Shown: positions 560 through 63,884 of the stretch, one piece after another
How positions within the stretch are numbered: the stretch's first letter is position 1
Layout of the letters: each line of letters starts with the position of its first letter
From: Escherichia phage A221
Length of the DNA stretch: 64,000 nucleotides
Reading direction: 5' to 3' (one strand)
Sequence record: ON862890.1
Notes under the pieces: model-generated
What the model saw: only the letters and a program-made list of their open reading frames with translations
What the model was told of the DNA's origin: nothing
Databases searched by the model: none
Program-made: the position numbers and the translations under genes

Positions 560-651
560 CGTAGAAAGTTAATATTCACGCAAGTTCGCGCTCCGCTTGG
601 TCGCGCACCTTATAACACTAAGGTGTTAACTTTCTTTTCAATAAAAAGTAG

Positions 652-680
652 TTTACATCTATGAAAATGCAGTATATTAT
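652..680 (+). promoter_or_regulatory. sigma70-like early promoter candidate
   Basis: TTTACA (652-657) - 17 nt - TATTAT (675-680) in a 190-bp AT-rich gap; GTTTAC -35 resembles T4 early promoters. Confidence 0.4.
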
Positions 681-1602: not shown

Positions 1603-1630
1603 GTTCAATAGATGAAGGGGTTGCTATAAT
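1603..1630 (+). promoter_or_regulatory. promoter candidate GTTCAAT-N15-TATAAT
   Basis: Box 1603-1609, -10 TATAAT 1625-1630, 30 nt before ATG 1661; motif recurs elsewhere in window. Confidence 0.35.
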
Positions 1631-1660
1631 AGCAGCTCCTTTTGTTTATCGGAGCAGTTT

Positions 1661-2320
1661 ATGTCCTACTCCCTGAAGGGGCTGATGAAGCGCCCCGTCC
1701 ACACATTCTTTAAACCACCCGTCGTAAAGGGGATCTACCCAGCACGAGGGCAAATCTACTACGTCAAAGGCTCCAATGGTAGCGGTAAATCCACTGTGCC
1801 GTCTCAGCTGGCGGAGAGGGATCCTCAGGCGTATGTCGTGACCCATAACGGCAAGGTAATGCTGACTGTCTGTCCTTCGTTCAACGTGGTCTGTATCGGT
1901 AAATATGACAAGTCGAAGTCCAAGGGGGTTGATTCCCTGAAGGACACTGAGCAGATGTTGTTCGCGTTGTCTATTGCTGACCAACCAGAATACTTGAAAT
2001 ATGATGTGATTTTCGAAGGTATCATTCCATCAACATTATTGAGTTCTTGGATCCCCCGCCTGACACGCCCACCACGTGAATTGGTTGTGCTCTTTATGGA
2101 CACTCCCCTTGAAACGTGTATCTCCCGCGTTAAATCACGTAACGGTGGTGTGGACTTCAATGAAGGTCTGGTGGTCGAGAAGTGGGAGAGAGTTCATGAC
2201 CATCGTCAACGACATAAAGACTTGTTCCCTACGGTAGCTGCGGGTATGATGAAGTCTCACGGCCTAACGGTAGACCAGGCTGTGATGGCATTCCTCTGTC
2301 GTGATTTTGGGAGTATCTGA
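1661..2320 (+). CDS. P-loop nucleotide kinase (candidate modified-dNMP kinase)
   Basis: Walker A GSNGSGKST; GGAG RBS; stop overlaps start of downstream TS-family gene. Confidence 0.55.
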   Translation: MSYSLKGLMKRPVHTFFKPPVVKGIYPARGQIYYVKGSNGSGKSTVPSQLAERDPQAYVVTHNGKVMLTVCPSFNVVCIGKYDKSKSKGVDSLKDTEQMLFALSIADQPEYLKYDVIFEGIIPSTLLSSWIPRLTRPPRELVVLFMDTPLETCISRVKSRNGGVDFNEGLVVEKWERVHDHRQRHKDLFPTVAAGMMKSHGLTVDQAVMAFLCRDFGSI

Positions 2321-7837: not shown

Positions 7838-7866
7838 ATTCAATAAGGCGGGTCATAGGGTATAAT
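7838..7866 (+). promoter_or_regulatory. promoter candidate ATTCAAT-N16-TATAAT
   Basis: Box 7838-7844, TATAAT 7861-7866, upstream of ATG 7899 (AGGAG RBS). Confidence 0.35.
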
Positions 7867-7898
7867 TCTATGATCTGAATGTAAACCAGGAGCACATC

Positions 7899-8234
7899 AT
7901 GTCACACAATGATTTTATGGCTGGCCTGGTGCAGGCCGCCAAACAGGTGTGCCACACCAAACAAGCGATTGAGCTGAGTCCGGAGCAGACTCTGGAGTTC
8001 TTCAACAATCGTAAAATCTGGGAGGAATATGGAATTGGTATGATATGCCAAGAGGGTGAACTCGTACAGCTAGATCTGCCGTCATTCCCCCTTCCAGTGC
8101 GCACCAACACAGTGGAATGGTATACGACGGAAGATGGTGTAGAGATCATCCCGAAGTTCCAGTATCACTCAATCGTAAACTTCTTTTTACGCCGTTGCGG
8201 GACTAATCTGATCCCACAAGGTATGAGATCTTAA
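7899..8234 (+). CDS. hypothetical protein
   Basis: AGGAG RBS; 111 codons. Confidence 0.5.
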   Translation: MSHNDFMAGLVQAAKQVCHTKQAIELSPEQTLEFFNNRKIWEEYGIGMICQEGELVQLDLPSFPLPVRTNTVEWYTTEDGVEIIPKFQYHSIVNFFLRRCGTNLIPQGMRS

Positions 8235-8249
8235 CAAGAGGAACACCAA

Positions 8250-8564
8250 ATGTCTGTAGAACAAATCGGCTTTTATGTACTACCATCTGATCCTGAATCC
8301 CGTCGCAAGCTGATAGGTGCAATTGAAAACTGTCGTGCCGCCCAGGTCCGCATCAAGTCGGAACAGACTTTCATTACTGAGACTCTGGCCGAGCTGGCGA
8401 AAGACACGGGTATCAAGGCCAGCGACTTGCGCAAGGTTGTATCCGACCGCGCCAATGGAACTTACCATAAGACGATCGAAACGAGCGAGAAATATCAAGA
8501 CTTATACGAGTCTCTATTCCCGAACGCCAAGCCCGATCGAGATCCGAATGCCAGTGGCGAATAA
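8250..8564 (+). CDS. hypothetical protein
   Basis: AGAGGA RBS; 104 codons. Confidence 0.5.
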   Translation: MSVEQIGFYVLPSDPESRRKLIGAIENCRAAQVRIKSEQTFITETLAELAKDTGIKASDLRKVVSDRANGTYHKTIETSEKYQDLYESLFPNAKPDRDPNASGE

Positions 8565-8606: not shown

Positions 8607-8679
8607 TAACTTCAATAACTTTACTTTCAAGAAATAATCGCCTAATATTTAATCTGTATTGAAGAGTTACAACTACATC

Positions 8680-10211: not shown

Positions 10212-10586
10212 ATGATCAAGTTTATCAACTGGTTGTTCTGTATACCGCCGCTGAGTGCTGAGATTCGTTGTCTGATTGACGCCATTGACGCTGATGACGT
10301 TGAATGGAACGGAGAGCGGCTGGTCGGGATCGACGCTGTGATCTATAACGGTGTCAAAGTGTATGCTTACACGGTCAACAACAGTTCAGGCTACACAGTC
10401 GATATTGGTTATCACACAGATTGCCTGCCTCGCCATGAAGCCAAGGCTGTGTACAAAGCTCTGGAGCGACACCACAAGCGCCGGATTAATCGCGCAGAGG
10501 CTCAGACCGAAATTAAAATCGTGAAGAAGTCCGCAAGGCTCTGGGTTTCCATAACAAATAATTCAATAAACTATTCACCCATATAA
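10212..10586 (+). CDS. hypothetical protein
   Basis: GAGGAAG RBS; 124 codons. Confidence 0.45.
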   Translation: MIKFINWLFCIPPLSAEIRCLIDAIDADDVEWNGERLVGIDAVIYNGVKVYAYTVNNSSGYTVDIGYHTDCLPRHEAKAVYKALERHHKRRINRAEAQTEIKIVKKSARLWVSITNNSINYSPI

Positions 10587-10587
10587 T
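10561..10587 (+). promoter_or_regulatory. promoter candidate ATTCAATAAAC-N10-TATAAT
   Basis: Box 10561-10567, TATAAT 10582-10587 overlapping upstream stop; near-identical to minus-strand copy at 59616-59642. Confidence 0.4.
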
Positions 10588-10615: not shown

Positions 10616-10957
10616 ATGACTACACTCGTAGAAACATTATTCCCAGGCTGCGTACTTGGGCGCGGTGGATCCGAAGCCAACGGGCTACCGATTGACGTCG
10701 AACCTCAGAACTGTGTTATTGTTGACAAGTTTCACGACAACCATTATGCCCTGAACAATCGTCGTGACCACTATCTTGTTTCCGTAGGAGATTCTTTGGT
10801 CAGTCTGCGCATCTGCAAGGCTATGCCAGGATCCGGCTATGGAGCATTCGCCTATATTCACAGCGTGTCAAATGACGAGCTGGGTAAAGAAGCTCTGGTT
10901 GAAAAATTCAAGAGTTGGAAGGATTCTTTCACCTCAATTGAACCCCCGAAGAAATAA
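10616..10957 (+). CDS. hypothetical protein
   Basis: AAGGAA RBS; 113 codons. Confidence 0.5.
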   Translation: MTTLVETLFPGCVLGRGGSEANGLPIDVEPQNCVIVDKFHDNHYALNNRRDHYLVSVGDSLVSLRICKAMPGSGYGAFAYIHSVSNDELGKEALVEKFKSWKDSFTSIEPPKK

Positions 10958-11018
10958 CTGAGGACTACACACTGACCTCATTATCGGCCAGGCAAAATCC
11001 CGCACCTGCCAATAATCT

Positions 11019-11041
11019 ATTGAAGTCCCCAGGGTTATAAT
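11019..11041 (+). promoter_or_regulatory. promoter candidate ATTGAAG-N10-TATAAT
   Basis: TATAAT 11036-11041, 29 nt before ligase ATG; same architecture on minus strand upstream of rIIA. Confidence 0.35.
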
Positions 11042-11070
11042 AGCAGCACATATAACCCTGGAGACACCAC

Positions 11071-19433: not shown

Positions 19434-19483
19434 GGTCTCAGCCCTTAAATAGATAGAGTGTTATGGCTATTTAGGACTAGATT

Positions 19484-21548: not shown

Positions 21549-21617
21549 TTCCGGTTCCTCTTAATAAACGAAGGGAAGTATATACTCCCCCTTCTTCAAT
21601 AACCGCTGAATCTTTAT

Positions 21618-25003: not shown

Positions 25004-25053
25004 TTGATGTTACCAAACAAGGGGTCGAGGCGGTAATAATACCGCCTTTTTCT

Positions 25054-25464
25054 TCAATAGAGGTCTTCGGAAAAGAGTTCGCGGAAAGGGGTTGTCTTCA
25101 GGCGCACCTGATTGATCTGTCCAGCTTCACGGGCTACGATGCATGCCTCTTCACGAGTGAGGAAGTTGCCCTGGTTGTCGATGAATCCCTGTTCGCGGGT
25201 ATGGGTGGATTTAATGACGCCTGCCTCTTTCAGGATCTTGAGCTGACTGTTCATGAATTTGCTATGGTGACGGTCGGCAACGACGATTACATCACCATAT
25301 TTGTTGGCGGCAGCGACCACACGGCGCTCCCAGGCACCTTCGGCAGGAAGTTCACGAGTGTACAATGGAATCATCGTATCACCGATGTCATCCCCCTTCA
25401 CCTGTGAGAACAACTTGCCTTCAGTTCCCGTTGGGAGTTCACGAAAATATCCCAGTAATTTCAT
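25054..25464 (-). CDS. hypothetical protein
   Basis: 136 codons. Confidence 0.45.
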   Translation of the reverse strand: MKLLGYFRELPTGTEGKLFSQVKGDDIGDTMIPLYTRELPAEGAWERRVVAAANKYGDVIVVADRHHSKFMNSQLKILKEAGVIKSTHTREQGFIDNQGNFLTREEACIVAREAGQINQVRLKTTPFRELFSEDLY

Positions 25465-38602: not shown

Positions 38603-38625
38603 ATAATACGGTGGGTGTCTTCAAT
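38603..38625 (-). promoter_or_regulatory. promoter candidate ATTGAAG-N10-TATTAT for rIIA
   Basis: Minus-strand box 38619-38625, -10 38603-38608, about 50 nt upstream of rIIA start. Confidence 0.35.
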
Positions 38626-38627
38626 TG

Positions 38628-38651
38628 AAAAAGCCCTCGGCTGAGGGCTTT
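38628..38651 (-). terminator. rho-independent terminator
   Basis: AGCCCTC-ggct-GAGGGCT with UUUUU on minus strand, 8 nt after stop at 38659. Confidence 0.55.
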
Positions 38652-39347: not shown

Positions 39348-39880
39348 TTCGTTTCCCCCTTGGCAGCATAGGACAGTGCCTGAACAATCATTATAGCCAG
39401 ATCGATCGGCGAGTAGGTGCTGTTCAGATCTTCTCGAACACTCTGCTCGATTTCTTCATCAGACTGGACCACAGGACAGTTCTTTCCCTGGCGACGGCGT
39501 TCTGTGTTGATCATATCACGCAGGAGCAGATTGGTGAAGGAGTACTCATCAAAGTTCTCCAGGTATTTCTGAATCCCAGTGGATACAGGGGTTGGCTCCG
39601 GCTCCTTTGCCCCAGGATCTTTCAGGGCAGCAACAGTGGCATCAATATCCCACAGAGGGTTCATCAGTAACAGAAGATTAACTGTTTCTCCTGACTCTGA
39701 AGTCGGGTTATTTCCCAGCACCTTGTAAAGATTCTTCAGGGTATTGTCAAAGGTCAGAACGGCCTGCGCCAGTTCTTCATAAGTTGGTTTGGTAGTCATC
39801 AGCGTTTGCTCCGGCGTTTGTTCTTCATCTTTCTTGGCTTGTCTGTCATGTTCCTGTCCACGAAAAAGGGGATAGAGCAA
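39344..39880 (-). CDS. hypothetical protein
   Basis: 178 codons. Confidence 0.45.
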   Translation of the reverse strand: MLYPLFRGQEHDRQAKKDEEQTPEQTLMTTKPTYEELAQAVLTFDNTLKNLYKVLGNNPTSESGETVNLLLLMNPLWDIDATVAALKDPGAKEPEPTPVSTGIQKYLENFDEYSFTNLLLRDMINTERRRQGKNCPVVQSDEEIEQSVREDLNSTYSPIDLAIMIVQALSYAAKGETK

Positions 39881-39911
39881 TAATACCCTATCCCCTTTTA
39901 TTGAAGAACGA

Positions 39912-42694: not shown

Positions 42695-42737
42695 AAAAAG
42701 AAAGGGGAACGGGCTAATAATAACCCATTCCCCTTTA
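42695..42737 (-). terminator. terminator-like hairpin
   Basis: AGGGGAA ... TTCCCCT stem (42703-42734) flanked by A-run and T-run. Confidence 0.4.
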
Positions 42738-42761
42738 TTGAAGGAATCAACCCCAGTCAGA

Positions 42762-47784: not shown

Positions 47785-47837
47785 CTGTTTGTCAAAGGGT
47801 TAACAGGGGGAATTATATCCCCCTTTGGTTTATTGAA

Positions 47838-49419
47838 TCAACCTTTCTTCTTTTGCATCATGGCAAGAAGGTTCACACGGCGCTTGTGTGACCAGCCGAC
47901 CACGTCGAGGATAGACTGAATCGGATCAATGAAGGACTTCTCAAAGGCCGCCTGATAATCCACCCATTTGCCCAGACCAAGTTCCTCGGGGAAGAACTCA
48001 GGATATGCAAAGTAGTTCTGCCCAAACGGGTTGCCCGGCTTCAACAACACCATCTGTACCTTATCACCCGACTCGATCATCGGTAGACCCAGATCTTCGT
48101 TCTTCTCAACCAGACGGTTGTAGCCCACACACGCCTTGGCAGCAAAATGAGCACCAGAGATGAACGATCCGTCAGCAGCCACACACTTCTCTACGTCGGA
48201 CACGCCTGACGCCTTGGCGATATCGTCTACAGAGAGTTTCATGTACTCCTCTTTGTACTGGGAGATGAGCGTCTGTACTTCCTCTTCGGTGCCGAGTAGG
48301 ATCTTCTCATAGCACTTGACAAGGCGCTCACGACACCATTCCGGCGTGGTGGACTTGCGGGCTTCCAGACCTTTGAACTTGATCTTCGGCTTCTCGTACT
48401 TGATACCCTCACTGTCGTACACGGCCATGGCATACATCTTCTTGGCTCGCCAGACAGCGGCTGACGCAATGACCTCACGCTCCCACACCATGCGCTGTTC
48501 AAATCCGTTCATGGTGTTACACAGAAGCTGTGCCCACTCATTGGTCTTCGGCTGGTAGTTGTCTTTGATCCATTGGTCGATATTATCAACCATAGCATGA
48601 TGGTCAGTAACATCAGACCACAACTGCTTGACAAGACGCTCAATGCAGATGTAGTTGGAGTCGGTATCCCCTGCGATGACGAAGTCCTGGCCTGTTGTAC
48701 CACACAGCTTGTTCAGATAGTCATCAGTGTAACGCTTGTTCCACTTGTTGATCAGCTGACCGGATGTGGTGATGGCTTCGGCAATGTTGAGGTTGAAGTA
48801 CTCTTTGAACCAGACGTTCGAGATAGCGCCATAACCTGCGTTCATCAAGATCTTCAGACCTTGCTGTAGGGTATCTTGAGCGACGCCCAGGTCTTCCCAC
48901 TTCTTCATCACTTCGGTCAGGGCATCAAGATCAATGTTCTTGTGCTCTTCATACCACTCTGGGTCATAGTAGCGAGACTTCATGGCAGACTCAAGATGGA
49001 AGTCGCCCTTCGACATCTCTTTACACCAGCCAGCCCACTGCTCATACTTCAGACCCTTGGCCTTCTCTACTTTACGGTCGCTGTAGATACCACGCATGAT
49101 TTCAGACAGGAACGACATCTTCTCGTTGCTGAAGAATTGAACGTTCGGCGTGAACGACACGTTGTAGCGGCGCAGGGTTTCAAAGTGGAACTCACCCAGG
49201 GCAACCAACTCATCAACAACCTGCAGGCGTTCGTCAACCGCACGCAACAGCTTGTCGTGAAGGGCTTTCATCAACCGACGTTTGTGCATCGGCGTTGCCA
49301 TGTTATTCATCTGAGCAGCCAGCTCTTCACACATAGCCTCAATAATCTCGCGGCGCTGGTGTTTGTCGCCAACGATAGTCTCTGGACCGAGGTTGTATTG
49401 CTGAATGATGTGTGGATAT
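47838..49419 (-). CDS. 43: DNA polymerase (family B) exon 2
   Basis: Begins inside motif A (YPHIIQQYNLGPETI); KILMNAGYGAISN and VIAGDTDS (motif C); track ORF 47838-49466 includes 47 nt of intron. Confidence 0.85.
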
Positions 49420-49884
49420 CGCTTATGTTCAGGGATGCTCGCTATTTCATCCCCCGTGTTCGTCATTCAGTTTACCGAACACTGCTGTATGTCACCATAC
49501 AGGCCAGACTATATCACAATCTCCAGAACTGTCTAGAGATTCTCTCCATTTCGAGGCGCTTGCCCCTACTCTACTCGCTTCAGATCAGACGCTTAGTCGT
49601 CGGTCTTGCTTTCGATAGTCGTTGAACCTTGTCACCCACTACTTCAAGGAAATCATCTGGGTTTAACCCAGCGTAACCAAAGAGTCGTTTGAAGTTTCTT
49701 GCCAACTTGCCCCACTCATTCTGGCAAACATTTCCTTCATGACCTTACTCCTTCACCGAGGTTACAGAGTATTTAGATCTTCGTGGCCGACCTTGGCTGC
49801 TGATTATCTCTAAAGAGACTTCCCAGCAATTAAGAGAGTTATTCGATGGTTGTCGCCAACCAAAGCCCCTATGCTGCTAACTTA
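49420..49884 (-). ncRNA. group I self-splicing intron (no ORF) in DNA polymerase gene
   Basis: On minus strand: P-like AATTGCTGGGAAG, Q-like AATCAGCAGCC, R-like GGTTCAACGACTA, S-like GATATAGTC (P7 GACTA/TAGTC); exon 1 ends in U, intron ends in G; splice restores DLNSLYPHII. Confidence 0.75.
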
Positions 49885-51302
49885 AGGGAGTTCAAATCTT
49901 CCGAGAAGACCCAGAAGTAGATTCCTGGTGTCACATCCATGACGTATGCACCCTCAAAGTCGGTCGGACCATCGTATACACGCTGGATCTTAGGCACTAT
50001 CCCCTTCTCGTACAGGCGATAGTAGCACATGGCCAGCCACGGAGCCACAGTGCCCAGACCGTCTTCATAGTTGGACTTGGTGCGGTAGGCCAGGACGAAC
50101 ATCAGTTGGAGCAGGCGCAGCTTCTGTTCAAGTCGCCATACCAGCTTAACGTCTTTGATACCATATCGGGTGTGTTTGCAGTAGTCGTTGAAGTACAGAT
50201 CAAAGAGCGACTTGCTCTCACTGTAGTCCATCTTCTTCTCACCCAGCTCACAATACGCAATCCAGTCAAGAGAGTAGCGTTCACGGGTGGTGTACGTGTG
50301 TTTCTTGTAGATCTGCATATAATCGAGCATAGGGCAACCCACGAACTGATACGTCGTGATATCGCCCTTCTTATCGCGAATGATACGCTTCTTAATGATA
50401 CCCCAAGGACTGAGGCGCGACGTTTCAGCCTCACCCAGAACCTGATTCATGCGCTCAACAAGATACGGGCTATCGAACGTTTCAATGTTCCAGCCTGTCC
50501 AGCCATCAAACTGACGCTGTGACCAGAAGTCTAGGAACGAGCGCAGCAGATCTTGTTCGGTGGTGAACTCCTGATAAACAACCTCAAGGCCGCCGATCTC
50601 TTTGTCTTCGGTGTCGTATGCGAATTTGTTACGATCTTTGGCACAGGGCATACCCCAGACCATGAACTTATTGGTCGCCATATCCTGAAGCTGGATCAGG
50701 GTAATGGGGAACGCCGCATTCATGTCTTGGGTGATCTTGCCGTTGCTGTCAATGATAGGGAACTGATCAGTGACGTTGTTGCTGATGAAAGAACCAGGGA
50801 AGTGCTCACGGACAAATTCATGGTTGGCCAGCACTTGTTTATGGAAGCGGCGAATGCGCGCCTCATTCCCTTTGAACGTCTGCTGCTCAATGGTTGGGTG
50901 AGGGAATGGACCTTTGGTCATCTTTCCGTCTTTCCACCCGGCGGAGAACACTTCGATATCGAGGTTAGCAATATGGATGTTGGAATAATCCGGCTCAATC
51001 TTTCCAGGAAAGCTATGGGCGATGAACTGGTATGCATAATCGGTCTGTCCGTAAATGGCAGCACCCTGGACTTCCTTGTACTCTTCAAGATAGTTGTCAG
51101 CGTCACGCATGGAAGGGAACTGCTTGGCTACCAGGGGTTCATTGAGAAGACCGACCTTTTCAACATTTGAATAGTCAGCCGTGGGTAAATAGAGAGTGGG
51201 TTCGAATTTCTTTTTCAACAGACGGCGATTACCCATGTCATCTGCAATTCGAATCAACAGGTCATTGCCCCTTCGGGCAACGTTCGTATAGAAAACGGTC
51301 AT
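49885..51302 (-). CDS. 43: DNA polymerase (family B) exon 1
   Basis: N-terminus aligns to T4 gp43 (MTVFYTNV..); Exo I ANLDIEV, Exo II WNIETFDSPY; ends in motif A DLNSL. Confidence 0.85.
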
Positions 51303-52209: not shown

Positions 52210-52226
52210 AATATTTATTGAATAAA

Positions 52227-52255
52227 GTTTACTTCTTCAATAACTGGCGTATACT
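52227..52255 (+). promoter_or_regulatory. sigma70-like promoter candidate GTTTACT-N16-TATACT
   Basis: Resembles early promoter at 652-680; 50 nt upstream of ATG 52305. Confidence 0.35.
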
Positions 52256-52304
52256 TCTAATTGTAGTACGAACAAACAACAATCTGAAGAGAAGGAAATA
52301 CATC

Positions 52305-54054: not shown

Positions 54055-54198
54055 GTTGGGTTCCTCAGTGGGTTAGCCATATGGGGTATTTAGGCTTCCC
54101 GCTTGGCGAGGCCTGGTTTGTACAGGACGCCTCTCGGAAATATTGGAGGAAGGTTTTCATAGATACCCCACACGGATTGTATGGGGTATTCAAGAGGG

Positions 54199-56187: not shown

Positions 56188-56227
56188 TAGTGTATCCTCA
56201 AATCTATGATAGGGGGTTAACGGTTAA

Positions 56228-56255
56228 ATTTTAAACCCCCTTTGTATCATTGAAC
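56228..56255 (-). promoter_or_regulatory. promoter candidate GTTCAAT-N15-TAAAAT
   Basis: Minus-strand box 56249-56255, -10 56228-56233, upstream of gene starting 56187. Confidence 0.3.
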
Positions 56256-56976: not shown

Positions 56977-58990
56977 AAATTATTGTGTACCAACCAAGGA
57001 CTGTCAACCCTTTATCCCGTTTGTGCATGATCAGTTCATGCATGCCTGTTTGTGCGCCTCACGGCATGCGCTTCTGTGGGTCTTTGGCTTGCACCATAGC
57101 CTCGCCACAGGCGTTTATTTTTCCAGGGCTTTCCACTTACAAGTCTTAACCAGACCGGGATACGGGCTTGTAAGATCGGGTTGGACACAACTTTGATAGC
57201 TCTGGTACTAAAGATCCCGCGTCACCCATAGACATGGTTTATAAAATCCAGAGCCATCAAAGTTGCAACCAAATGTTACAACTCGCAGCTTCCATACAGA
57301 AGCAACTTGTCCTCTAACGCTCGGACCAAACTAGGCTGGCTGGCTGGTTGATTCAGAGCCGCTGGTTGCTCCAGCAAGCATGGGTTGATAGCCCGGCAAC
57401 ATAGAATCACCCAAAGATGAAGAACATTCATGACTCACATCACACCACGAATGGTCTGAAAGAGAATCGAACTCTTTAAATGCTCTTCATTTTGTGAACT
57501 TGAGAATACTACGCCTGTCTCGGGTTTCCCCTTAGTTCGGCCTCCCAGTCCTCGCCGCGCCGGGTAGCTAACCCTGATGGCTCGTCTGCTACTGAGTTCT
57601 TCTTGGTGCCCACCAGTGTCCGGAATGTGTAGGCATCGCAATCTGCAAGGCATGGTCTATTTCACCCAATGCTCTCTAAAGTTCACAAATCGAAGTGCCC
57701 TGACTCAACAGTATGGCCCAATATGCTGTTATCGTCCACCGGATTGGCCGCCAAATTTGTAGATCAACCTTTGGGTTTAAGATAAATTGTCAAGGCACTT
57801 CGATTTGTGTGCCCTTCACCTGCCAGGGATCAGGGCTGATGGCAAGACTTCGCTCACATCTTTCAAGATACTCGTGAGAATATCCTCAAAGATGTGGAGC
57901 CGTTTTAGGGAGTCGAACCCAAATGCTTGGCCAGCGCTGACCTTACATCCCATCTGACTTAGGCAACCCACCTCTGCTTACTCAGGAGCTTATCCCCTTT
58001 GGACAGTCAGATATAACGGCATTGTCGACGGGAGATTATTAATCACACCCTCCCGTCTATTTTAGTGCGCCGAATTTGGTGATGAGGAATCGGAAGACCT
58101 CACTGACTTATAGGCTGTTACGCCGCCATCAGAACTTCGGAATCATTAGCAGTTATTTGCTTGGTCAGTTTCTAAAAACCCGCAAAGTCACTCACAACGA
58201 AAACGAAAACCTGTTTGAGCACAAGACACCATGTCCTGGGTTCACATCGAAGTGTTTGTCTAATGCCCAAACAGCTTTTCGCTTCAGTGGGTTAACTATA
58301 CTTTGTAACCCGTTATTGATAAAACCTTTTATTTTTGTTGGCGAGGGTATCACCATCGATTTACCGGAACTTACGCATCCGGCCTCGCCTGTTGGTGCTC
58401 CTTCGAATCCGGGAAGATCAGTAGGAACTATGAATCAAGTTAATTCAACCAACAGGAACCTTGTTGCCCTTTGACGCAACATTATGAACCCTCTATGGAA
58501 GACTCATAATGTTGTCGGCGTGATGGAGATTAGCGCCCCCGACCTCCCCTTGTGTTGGTGTCGACTTGCCAACGGGGTGCTCTCTGATTCTGAGCTAATC
58601 ACGCTACAACAGGGAGTTTCGTTCTCCGACGGTCAAGTGCGTCCACTGACACCATGCAAGGTGGATATTGACTTATGGAGCCGGAGTCCTCGTCCTAGGA
58701 CTGTGCTCGGCCTCAGCCTTTACACCGCTGGTAGCCCGACCCTTTACACCATAAAATTTACTATACTACAGCCCAGCTAATTTGAAAAGTCCTCTCCTCT
58801 TTGAGCTACACTGCCCACAGCAGTGCGGACGAACCTTCACTCAAAACCGGATGCGCCGAAGTGGGCGTCTGTTTACCGGACTGATCGGGTAGACCCAGGA
58901 GAGTAAAGGTAATCCCGATCAGGAGGATGAGGAGTAACATCATGTAAAACATAGTGTTCCCTCCCTTCCATGCAACTAACTTTACTGCAA
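56977..58990 (-). other. ORF-free structured region upstream of tRNA genes (candidate non-coding RNA)
   Basis: About 2 kb without credible ORF on either strand; long complementary segments 57188-57205/57248-57265 and 57684-57699/57794-57809. Confidence 0.3.
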
Positions 58991-59009
58991 TTATTTATTG
59001 AATAAAGCG

Positions 59010-59579
59010 TTATTTTAACACTTCTAACTTCACAATACGACGCAGAAGGTAAACATATTCGCCAGCAGCTTCATGCGTCATATAATGGGTAGAAGGTGTG
59101 GAATGAGTGTTCTGGGTTTCTTTTAATCCAACGCGTTCAGCCCAACCATTAATAGAGTTCCCATAGAAACCGATAATCGCGCCAAAATAAATGCGCCCGC
59201 TTTCTGGCTCTAAAACGTAGTTGACAGTGAAGCAAATGTCAGAACGAATAGACTCCAGTTTCATACCAACACGACCTTCAGAGAATTCGTTACGAACATA
59301 TAAATGACGGAAGCGATTGCGCCGTGCTTGTGATGATTCTTCCAATTCTTGTCGAAGTGAAGAAGTTATGTCAATATTAAATGAAAATGTTGGATTTCGT
59401 AAATCAGAACGGGCCAACTCTAACGCAGATTCAATAACGCGACGGAAATTGATACTTTTACCTGTCAGGCGTTTCACTTCATCGGTGATTATTTCAAAAG
59501 GGATTTTCGTGGCGCGTTCCCCTTCGTATTTTGCTAACAAAGGAACAATGTGTTTCATGATTGCTGTGTTAATGTGCAT
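59010..59579 (-). CDS. hypothetical protein
   Basis: 189 codons. Confidence 0.5.
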   Translation of the reverse strand: MHINTAIMKHIVPLLAKYEGERATKIPFEIITDEVKRLTGKSINFRRVIESALELARSDLRNPTFSFNIDITSSLRQELEESSQARRNRFRHLYVRNEFSEGRVGMKLESIRSDICFTVNYVLEPESGRIYFGAIIGFYGNSINGWAERVGLKETQNTHSTPSTHYMTHEAAGEYVYLLRRIVKLEVLK

Positions 59580-59615: not shown

Positions 59616-59642
59616 ATTATATTGGGAGTATGTTTATTGAAT
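59616..59642 (-). promoter_or_regulatory. promoter candidate ATTCAATAAAC-N10-TATAAT
   Basis: Minus-strand box 59636-59642, -10 59616-59621, about 37 nt upstream of start at 59579. Confidence 0.4.
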
Positions 59643-59944
59643 ATAAACACAGGAATGACCAATAAAATAATGACAGTGATTATTAATAGGTAAAAACTAC
59701 TTTTCTACAACATCAAGAAACTGTATCCTAACGCAGTGCCCTTCGAGTTGTGAGTGTCAACGAACAACGAGAAGCAGCCTCCATGGCTGTGGAATGGTGC
59801 TGCCCGCACAGGGCGGTGTTACGAGCGAGGGCGTCAGCCCCCTCGCGAGTTATATTCGAATAAATTAAACGCGCGCGAGCGTTTTGATTCCCGTTGGCTA
59901 AATATCTTCAACACCATATTCAAACTTAGGTGATGGAGATTATC

Positions 59945-63835: not shown

Positions 63836-63845
63836 AGTGAAAACT

Positions 63846-63884
63846 AAATACCCCTAGATGAAACGAACACATTTAGGGGTATTT
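63846..63884 (+). other. AT-rich hairpin overlapping RBS of downstream gene
   Basis: AAATACCCCTA (63846-63856) pairs with TAGGGGTATTT (63874-63884); 3' arm contains the Shine-Dalgarno for ATG 63888. Confidence 0.35.

Follow-up and report, generated by a model that had tools for sequence, protein, structure and literature searches.

A lineage-specific box ahead of -10 elements in the ViI-like phage A221: candidate pre-late promoters, many of them set in hairpins

The question raised by positions 10561-10587 of the DNA considered here, a 64,000-nucleotide stretch of Escherichia phage A221 (record ON862890.1; the window in what follows), is whether a short box placed a little ahead of a TATAAT hexamer is a promoter and, if so, what reads it. 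The arrangement recurs in the window in three architectural classes, called A, B and C below, the focal site being of class A. What the sequences support is the motif with its statistics, its position and orientation relative to genes, its conservation, covariation in the hairpins that surround many of the sites, a non-canonical geometry, and an absence of homologs of the T4 proteins MotA and AsiA. Judging from these features, the sites of classes A, B and C are very probably promoters. The fuller reading preferred here, in which they would be pre-late promoters for the host RNA polymerase-sigma70 with the box read by a putative phage-encoded factor, is one that, taken as a whole, we would believe and doubt in about equal measure.

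By nucleotide comparison, the window belongs to a phage of the Ackermannviridae, of Aglimvirinae/Agtrevirus type (ViI-like). Its identity is 97-99% with Escherichia phages LHE287, PC3 and AV101 and falls to about 90% with Shigella phage Ag3. Gene calls were transferred from PC3 and leave 10.4% of the window as non-coding.

The box, its spacing and its sites

All ten strings quoted in an earlier sequence-only reading of the window are present with the right coordinates and strands. In particular, the pair from which that reading started, ATTCAATAAAC-N10-TATAAT with equal spacing at 10561-10587(+) and 59616-59642(-), was recovered together with a third exact copy at 47812-47838(-). When the window was compared with dinucleotide-preserving shuffles, TTCAAT-N13-16-TAWAAT was found 6 times against 0.03 expected, ATTGAAG-N9-12-TATWMT 4 times against 0.01, and TTTACW-N16-18-TAWWMT 3 times against 0.12. 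Six sites come in addition to those listed earlier: the copy at 47812-47838(-); two boxes at 39905(-) and 42742(-), both of the form TTCAATAA-N12-TATTAT; two sites of the ATTGAAG type at 21577-21600(-) and 25036-25058(-); and one of the TTTACT type at 8620-8648(+).

Because these patterns had been defined after looking at the sequence, three pattern-free tests were run. In a k-mer test on the window, the 8-mer most enriched between genes was TTCAATAA/TTATTGAA, with 11 of its 17 copies non-coding. A de novo expectation-maximization search of 35 upstream regions returned TTCAATAAAn...TaTtAT as its top motif. Finally, for two complete genomes, that of LHE287 and that of the Kuttervirus Vi01 from a different subfamily, each hexamer at each offset of 8-21 nt upstream of each TAWWAT was tallied. 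The commonest combination was TTCAAT at offset 14, with 9 copies in LHE287 and 9 in Vi01, against 0.08-0.13 in shuffles.

A histogram of the spacing between box and -10 element in the same two genomes, where 0.1-0.3 occurrences per spacing are expected by chance, shows three peaks. The first corresponds to class A (TTCAATA, 13 nt, -10; 7 in each of LHE287 and Vi01), the second to class C (TTCAATA, 7-8 nt, -10; 5 in each), and the third to class B, where the box is inverted (TATTGAA, 11 nt, -10; 2 in LHE287 and 5 in Vi01). The earlier proposal of two or three promoter classes is thus sustained in part. Statistics, position, orientation and cross-genus conservation speak for promoters and for architectural classes; the classes are nevertheless not independent, since each has a TTCAATAA core: class A carries it at -32..-25, class B in inverted form, and class C within the spacer or just upstream of the -35 element.

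Class A can be described from 13 paralogous sites. A box of 8-9 bp, TTCAATAA(A), is followed by 12 nt in 7 of the 13 (range 10-14) and then by the -10 element. Aligned on the box, the sites read TTCAAT(A)(A)(A), with a gap of 14 nt between TTCAAT and the -10 element in 7 of 13 and of 12, 13, 15 or 16 nt in the others. Their -10 hexamers are consensus or one position off (TATAAT in 8, TATTAT in 4, TAAAAT in 1); those of class B are TATAAT, TATTAT and TATACT. If the -10 element is placed at -12..-7, the 8-mer box spans about -32..-25.

A sigma70 -35 element is expected at -35..-30, with the sequence TTGACA, 16-18 bp from the -10 element. TTCAAT agrees with TTGACA in 3 positions out of 6, and its distance from the -10 element is 14 nt (range 12-16), so that the box is about 3 bp too close. 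In class B, TTGAAG stands 10-11 nt upstream of the -10 element, and a canonical -35 element was found in class C only (at 652, 8620 and 52228). Extended -10 elements (TGn) are absent from the paralogous class A sites, where G- or C-rich stem bases stand instead, except at A1, which has TGC before TATAAT. A scan for TTGACA-16-18-TATAAT gave 22, 27 and 31 matches in three segments of the window against shuffle means of 22.1, 19.6 and 21.0, the third being about 2.7 standard deviations above; of the class A/B sites it recovered 2 out of 12, and of those in class C 2 out of 3. A canonical sigma70 reading of classes A and B was rejected, as both spacing and sequence are wrong.

The 12 class A/B sites of the window (A1 to A8, the rIIA site, the ligase site B1, B3 and B4) and the 3 class C sites are the following.

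A1, 1604-1642 (+): box TTCAATAG at 1604-1611; -10 element TATAAT at 1625-1630, at the apex of a hairpin at 1614-1642 followed by TTTTGTTT; upstream of the 5-hydroxymethyldeoxyuridine (5-hmdU) DNA kinase gene and the thyA-dUTPase-uvsX-helicase cluster; annotated in Ag3 both as Porf067 and as Torf069.
A2, 7839-7877 (+): box TTCAATAA at 7839-7846; TATAAT at 7861-7866, in the loop of a hairpin at 7849-7877; upstream of a gene at 7917-8234, then of a DsbA homolog at 8250-8564.
A3, the focal site, 10562-10587 (+): box TTCAATAA at 10562-10569; 12-nt spacer; TATAAT at 10582-10587; no hairpin; followed after 28 nt by the ATG at 10616; orthologs at Vi01 30005(-) and in the related loci L045 and L051.
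A4, 39866-39905 (-): box at 39898-39905; TATTAT at 39880-39885, at the apex of a hairpin at 39866-39897 followed by TTTTT; terminator-like.
A5, 42701-42742 (-): box at 42735-42742; TATTAT at 42717-42722, at the apex of a 16-bp hairpin at 42701-42736 followed by CTTTTT; terminator-like; Torf248 in Ag3.
A6, 47805-47838 (-): ATTCAATAAAC-N10-TATAAT; -10 element at 47812-47817, forming the loop of GGGGGA/TCCCCC in a hairpin at 47805-47824; just behind the DNA polymerase gene; Porf237 in Ag3, read there as TTGATT-N18-TATAAT.
A7, 56211-56254 (-): box TTCAATGA at 56247-56254; TAAAAT at 56228-56233, within a hairpin at 56211-56241; ortholog at Vi01 139709(+).
A8, 59616-59642 (-): ATTCAATAAAC-N10-TATAAT; at most a weak 4-bp hairpin by eye and none in the computed fold; in the divergent region between a gene at 59010-59579(-) and the gp6 baseplate gene (+), which has its own late-type CTAAATA motif at 59898-59904.
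rIIA site, 38603-38629 (-): TTCAAT at 38624-38629; 15-nt spacer; TATTAT at 38603-38608; directly behind the preceding gene's terminator hairpin, with the T-run overlapping the box.
B1, ligase site, 11018-11061 (+): inverted box TATTGAAG at 11018-11025; TATAAT at 11036-11041, overlapping the 5' arm of a hairpin at 11029-11061; candidate promoter of the DNA ligase gene.
B3, 21571-21601 (-): TATTGAAGA at 21593-21601; TATATA/TATACT at 21577-21584, at the centre of a hairpin at 21571-21592; upstream of a small gene and the dCMP deaminase gene; Torf031 in Ag3.
B4, 25027-25059 (-): TATTGAAGA at 25051-25059; TATTAT at 25036-25041, at the apex of a hairpin at 25027-25048; upstream of the Tk.4/dexA cluster; Torf021 in Ag3.
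Class C, 637-680 (+): TTTACA at 652-657; 17 nt; TATTAT at 675-680; TTCAATAA box at 637-644, upstream of the -35 element; Porf069 in Ag3.
Class C, 8611-8648 (+): TTCAATAA at 8611-8618, abutting TTTACT at 8620-8625; 17 nt; TAATAT at 8643-8648.
Class C cassette, 52213-52255 (+): palindrome ATTTATTGAATAAAG at 52213-52227; TTTACT at 52228-52233; TTCAATAA in the spacer at 52236-52243; TATACT at 52250-52255; Porf138 in Ag3.

Each of the 12 class A/B sites is directed at a gene whose start codon follows within 28-80 nt. The position of A8 in a divergent intergenic region requires a promoter there. The rIIA site, which had been placed with the ATTGAAG sites, should be moved to class A as TTCAAT-N15-TATTAT, because more distant genomes keep TTCAAT there and lose TTGAAG.

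The class C sites show the canonical TTTACT/A-N16-18-TATAAT-like arrangement with a box in the spacer; directly ahead of the -35 element there is often another box or the palindrome ATTTATTGAATAAAG. The likeness of GTTTAC-type sites to T4 early promoters, which had been noticed before, holds: the geometry is canonical, and the sites at 652-680, 8620-8648 and 52228-52255 share GTTTAC(T/A)T, spacer length and -10 element with the annotated T4 early promoter Pe133295 (GTTTACTT...TATTAT). The main class (TTCAAT-N14), to which the focal site at 10561-10587 belongs, is unlike T4 early promoters in having no GTTTAC-type -35 element. Class C itself departs from the T4 model in carrying TTCAATAA in the spacer or upstream, and in being a repeated cassette with a conserved transcribed leader. 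The cassette reads TTTACTTCTTCAATAAC-N6-TATACT...CATAAGCAGTACGACACCAAC...GAAGGAAC and is present in about 4 copies per genome, at 52228-52300(+) in the window and at 121246(-), 111989(-), 76541(-) and 4695(-) in LHE287. The 15-nt palindrome ATTTATTGAATAAAG, which amounts to two overlapping boxes in opposite orientation, occurs twice in identical form. The copy at 52213-52227 abuts the class C -35 element, and that at 58993-59007 lies just past the 3' end of the gene at 59010-59579, about 50 nt upstream of a 48-aa open reading frame (ORF). A symmetric dimer site at class A was considered and rejected, the left half-site being not conserved.

Conservation was followed in two IMG/VR scans, which brought together 21-23 related genomes around two parts of the window. 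A1, A2, A4, A5, A6 and B1 were each found at orthologous positions in 13-20 related loci, and the focal site A3 in Vi01 and a few further loci. In an alignment of 14 A2 sequences, the invariant columns are TTCAATA, TATAAT, ATCTGA around the predicted start and part of the ribosome-binding site, whereas the spacer and the 12 nt preceding the box are variable. That conservation would merely reflect low divergence is countered by these variable spacers and flanks beside an invariant box and -10 element, and by the compensatory stem changes described below, though the independent substitution events are few. In more distant phages the picture differs. In T4 the motif occurs once in 49 kb, among 385 -10-like hexamers. 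The exact motif was not found in 44 kb of the distant Aeromonas phage TSW001, where orthologous positions show, as judged by eye, only degenerate TTCnnn-N14-15 layouts and where GTTTACTT-type promoters are common. From these comparisons, the motif is not a general feature of coliphages or of the host. The RNase H gene also contains a TTCAAT-N14-TAAAAT arrangement, at 83054(-) in LHE287 and 70652(-) in Vi01, which precedes the late sigma gene 55 by about 160 nt; it could be an internal promoter for gene 55 or mere conservation of coding sequence.

Hairpins around the -10 element

In 9 of the 12 class A/B sites, the -10 element lies at the apex of a GC-rich, terminator-like hairpin, as found in computed folds or by a terminator scan. 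This feature had not been remarked on in the sequence-only reading. Folds of A1, A2, A4, A5, A6, A7 and B1 have ΔG values of -13 to -26 kcal/mol, with z-scores of -2.1 to -6.9 against shuffles; B3 and B4 were folded without shuffles, and both were also picked up by the terminator scan. In A2 and A6, the -10 element is exactly at the apex. For A3, A8 and the rIIA site, computed folds gave no significant hairpin.

The stems vary in sequence from site to site, as illustrated by GGGGGA/TCCCCC, GGCGGTA/TACCGCC and CCAGGGTTATA/TATAACCCTGG. Among the A2 orthologs, three pairs have changed on both sides, and 90.8% of cells are paired against 34-47% when the partners are slid. Fold totals are -159 kcal/mol for the sense strand and -127 kcal/mol for the antisense strand. 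G·U pairs number 16 on the sense side and 8 on the antisense side, where 6 of the 9 hairpins have none. Taken together, varied stems, compensatory changes and the bias of G·U pairs toward the sense strand argue for a structure under selection that acts in the sense-strand RNA. No site matched an RNA family in Rfam, where the only matches were two tRNAs and a group I intron. Further hairpin-embedded sites with degenerate boxes occur elsewhere in LHE287, for example before gp32.

A hairpin followed by a T-run is seen at A1, A4 and A5, and partly at B3; the hairpins of A2, A6, A7, B1 and B4 have no T-run. A1, A4 and A5 may accordingly be described as candidate promoters nested in predicted terminators, termination itself being something we infer from the sequence.

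A related arrangement appears at putative late promoters. The T4-late-type TATAAATA-like -10 element is not present at class A, B or C sites, and a separate motif, CTAAATA, precedes structural genes. This apparent late-promoter core has five copies in the window, all of them non-coding, including those at 19468-19474(-), 54087-54093(-), 59898-59904(+) and 63844-63850(+). In LHE287 it stands 25-45 nt upstream of gp22, gp19, gp18, gp14, gp6 and tail-spike genes. In several cases the motif makes up the 5' arm of a AATACCCC...GGGGTATT hairpin with a T-run behind it. Thus, late promoters also appear, from their sequence, to be nested in terminators.

Some of these places had been annotated one by one in Shigella phage Ag3, where the terminators Torf069, Torf248, Torf031 and Torf021 are the orthologs of the A1, A5, B3 and B4 hairpins (Anany et al., 2011, Table S2). 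In the same paper, some of the same places are listed separately as the sigma70-like promoters Porf067, Porf237, Porf069 and Porf138. That annotation records neither the overlap of the -10 element with the loop nor the shared TTCAATAA, and a TTGACA-like -35 element is forced on the sites, such as TTGATT-N18 at A6. Tentative single-site annotations in Ag3 were already known; the promoter class, its geometry and its nesting in terminators were not met with in the literature searched. No description of a TTCAATAA promoter class was found in the literature searched, although an earlier mention in the 2012 Viunalikevirus paper is possible. The 2024 review of the Ackermannviridae makes no mention of transcription or promoters (PMC11721090).

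What may read the box

The layout of class A recalls the middle promoters of T4, in which a MotA box 12±1 bp from a stringent -10 element replaces the -35 element, and which are located before rIIA, dexA and uvsX among others (PMC2988021). Here also, a stringent sigma70 -10 element comes without a usable -35 element, and a phage-specific box of about 9 bp lies about 12 bp upstream, centred near -29/-30. The genes behind the boxes are of the same rIIA, dexA, uvsX, gp32 and nrd types, in a T4-related genome that keeps gp55/gp33/gp45 late transcription. In the window, they comprise rIIA, the ligase gene, the dexA cluster, the dCMP deaminase gene (cd) and the hmdU-kinase/thyA/dUTPase/uvsX/helicase group, to which LHE287 adds nrdA, prs and gp32. 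Given this T4-middle-like combination of a stringent -10 element with an activator box 12±1 bp ahead of it, the box would most likely be read by a phage-encoded factor. The earlier suggestion of an activator-dependent class would suit a box 3 bp too close for a -35 element and the want of TGn. The likeness is not complete. The box is TTCAATAA(A), whereas the T4 MotA box is (a/t)(a/t)(a/t)TGCTTtA, and no TGCTT stands at that position. The box here also occurs inverted and within early-type promoters, most sites are nested in hairpins, and activation is only presumed.

Initiation at the sites, their temporal class, their dependence on a factor and termination are what we infer, and the following course of events may be envisaged. 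A first wave of transcription would start from the canonical T4-early-like promoters, TTTACT/A-N16-18-TATAAT-like. A phage factor would then, via the box, turn on the nucleotide-metabolism, replication and rII clusters. Since the box also lies in the spacer or beside the -35 element of the early-type promoters, the same factor could also shut them off. As to the hairpins, RNA reading through from the upstream gene would contain both arms and would fold, giving an intrinsic terminator where a U-tract follows. A transcript starting about 7 nt past the -10 element would have the 3' arm only and would therefore not be terminated. In this way, the unit would stop incoming transcription and restart it within about 40 bp.

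Several observations weigh against this proposal. Sequence searches for MotA and AsiA, by tblastn in LHE287, Vi01 and the window and by phmmer among LHE287 and Vi01 ORFs of at least 40 aa, folds not being compared, found no homolog; the best E-value, 0.03, falls inside the topoisomerase gene. The study of phage CBA120 likewise reported MotA and AsiA as absent, found early promoters not identifiable by informatics and called the transcription programme of the family unknown (PMC3184105). Searches for a reader were also negative: 20 small or early-looking proteins have no relevant Pfam domain, and PDB sequence searches of four candidate proteins gave nothing. The literature searched holds no start-site map, RNA-seq, expression or binding data for Ackermannviridae. 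The class B box, with its core inverted but its distance almost unchanged, does not sit easily with an asymmetric monomeric activator, and the AATAAA part of the box could be the A-tract of a bidirectional terminator. As 6 of the 9 hairpins have no clear U-tract, terminator function is not general. Finally, each genome has only about 5-7 canonical early-type promoters, so that unmodified polymerase may have to use some of the box promoters at once.

Among the early-looking proteins searched, the only one flagged as a transcriptional regulator by PHROGs is encoded at 8250-8564. It is an unconvincing reader of the box, being a homolog of T4 DsbA, which is tied to late promoters. This 104-aa protein, encoded on the plus strand behind A2, and T4 DsbA, a dsDNA-binding enhancer of late transcription, are both full-length matches to phrog_639 (8e-31 and 2e-40), whereas pairwise BLAST finds nothing. 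The homolog is conserved family-wide and is also seen in Aeromonas and Pseudomonas phages.

The last of the points against a phage factor leads to the main rival explanation, direct use of the sites by the unmodified sigma70 holoenzyme, which we regard as possible, if on the whole unlikely. In this model, the sites would be factor-independent early promoters recognized through their consensus -10 element, and TTCAATAA would be a displaced, weak -35-like element, or a spacer or upstream element suited to DNA with hypermodified thymidine. The -10 hexamers, consensus or one position off, would fit, as would the absence of any activator homolog or candidate from the searches made. The authors of the CBA120 study remarked that early transcription must involve many promoters, for which the number of canonical ones does not suffice (PMC3184105), and those of the Ag3 study read several of the sites as sigma70-like early promoters. 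Bases derived from hmdU, for which a kinase gene stands behind A1, could moreover shift the rules of recognition. However, TTCAAT matches the -35 consensus in only half of its positions and sits 14 nt from the -10 element instead of the normal 16-18, with no TGn to compensate, A1 excepted. The same genomes possess a separate, T4-early-like set of promoters with proper -35 geometry. Furthermore, the box is specific to a lineage, though host sigma70 is common to other coliphages.

Should the sites not be promoters at all, they could be RNA elements, either intrinsic or bidirectional terminators or hairpins for processing or stability, in which an AT-rich loop mimics a -10 element and the box is an upstream A-tract. 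The compensatory changes and sense-strand G·U pairs of the hairpins are what such elements would show. U-tracts follow at A1, A4 and A5, the complement of the box gives a T-run on the opposite strand at A6 and B4, and the Ag3 paper annotated these hairpins as terminators. We nevertheless consider this explanation very unlikely. A3, A8 and the rIIA site have box and -10 element at the same spacing without a significant hairpin. From genus to genus the loop stays TATAAT or TATTAT, whereas loops of the GNRA or UUCG type are found in ordinary terminators of these genomes; an A-tract leaves the TTCAAT part of the box unexplained; and the fixed distance to the start codon, together with the divergent position of A8, calls for a promoter.

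It is most improbable that the box is only an operator, through which a phage or host repressor or a nucleoid-type protein would down-regulate -10-driven promoters, or that the dyad extrudes as a DNA hairpin with a single-stranded -10 element, as in the promoters of the N4 virion polymerase: the box does occupy classical repression positions in the spacer and beside the -35 element of class C, ATTTATTGAATAAAG at 52213-52227 and 58993-59007 is a perfect palindrome and the -10 element is exactly apical in A2 and A6, but in class A the box sits where an activator or a -35 contact is expected, with nothing else there to recruit the polymerase and the left half of the palindrome not conserved, the confinement of G·U pairs to the sense strand argues for an RNA structure rather than a DNA one, and the annotation of the complete LHE287 and Vi01 genomes lists no N4-type virion RNA polymerase.

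Returning to promoters read by a phage factor, a more specific and rather doubtful proposal may be sketched, that of a MotA/AsiA-independent counterpart of sigma appropriation. A single early protein would read TTCAATAA, activate the -10-only promoters from -32..-25 and shut the T4-early-like ones, thereby switching early to middle transcription, and the gene clusters would be insulated by stop-and-restart modules of about 40 bp, with middle and several late promoters lying in the apex or 5' arm of the terminator hairpins. The dual switches phi29 p4 and lambda CI offer a parallel, purely as a model, for a site whose position relative to the core promoter would set activation (class A here) or repression (class C here).

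Gene surroundings and meaning for the family

The first 14.5 kb of the window form a plus-strand block with the genes for the 5-hmdU DNA kinase, thyA, dUTPase, uvsX, helicase and ligase. It is followed by a short minus-strand baseplate block, and a 31-kb minus-strand block holds the genes for dCMP deaminase, dexA, topoisomerase, rIIB, rIIA and DNA polymerase. Two tRNAs and the beginning of the baseplate/tail-spike block are also present.

Near the focal site, a 124-aa ORF at 10212-10586(+) ends within the TATAAT. Neither PC3 nor LHE287 has it annotated, and the space between the genes is shorter there by about 150 nt. The ORF, in what is a variable region, is perhaps not a gene. In Vi01, the TAA of a different ORF directly precedes the TTCAAT of the orthologous A3 site. 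Upstream of A6, the DNA polymerase gene is split into 47838-49466 and 49869-51302 by a group I intron without ORF at 49485-49872(-) (Rfam RF00028, 58.8 bits). The split is identical in PC3, and the polymerase is uninterrupted in LHE287 and Vi01. About 2 kb beside tRNA-Met and tRNA-Ser (56977-59009) have no called genes in the window or in PC3, and a near-consensus sigma70 promoter, TTGACA-N17-AATAAT, stands at 57007-56979(-), ahead of tRNA-Met.

The first gene after A1, at 1661-2320(+), encodes the 5-hmdU DNA kinase (PF18748, E = 1e-108). With this gene, the phage makes hypermodified thymidine, which would occupy the T-rich box and -10 element. One may then ask by what rules T-rich elements are read, by sigma70 and any accessory factor, when their thymidines are hypermodified.

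On the computational evidence assembled here, the Ackermannviridae would possess an activator-box promoter layout in a family where the known activator system, MotA and AsiA, has no homologs found by sequence. ViI-like phages are widely isolated and are used in biocontrol or therapy against Salmonella, E. coli O157, Shigella, Klebsiella and Dickeya. For these phages, a family-wide motif with T4-middle-like geometry would provide concrete start sites, a bait sequence for the putative factor and a basis for operon annotation in about 170 genomes. The compact terminator-promoter parts may, in addition, serve engineering.

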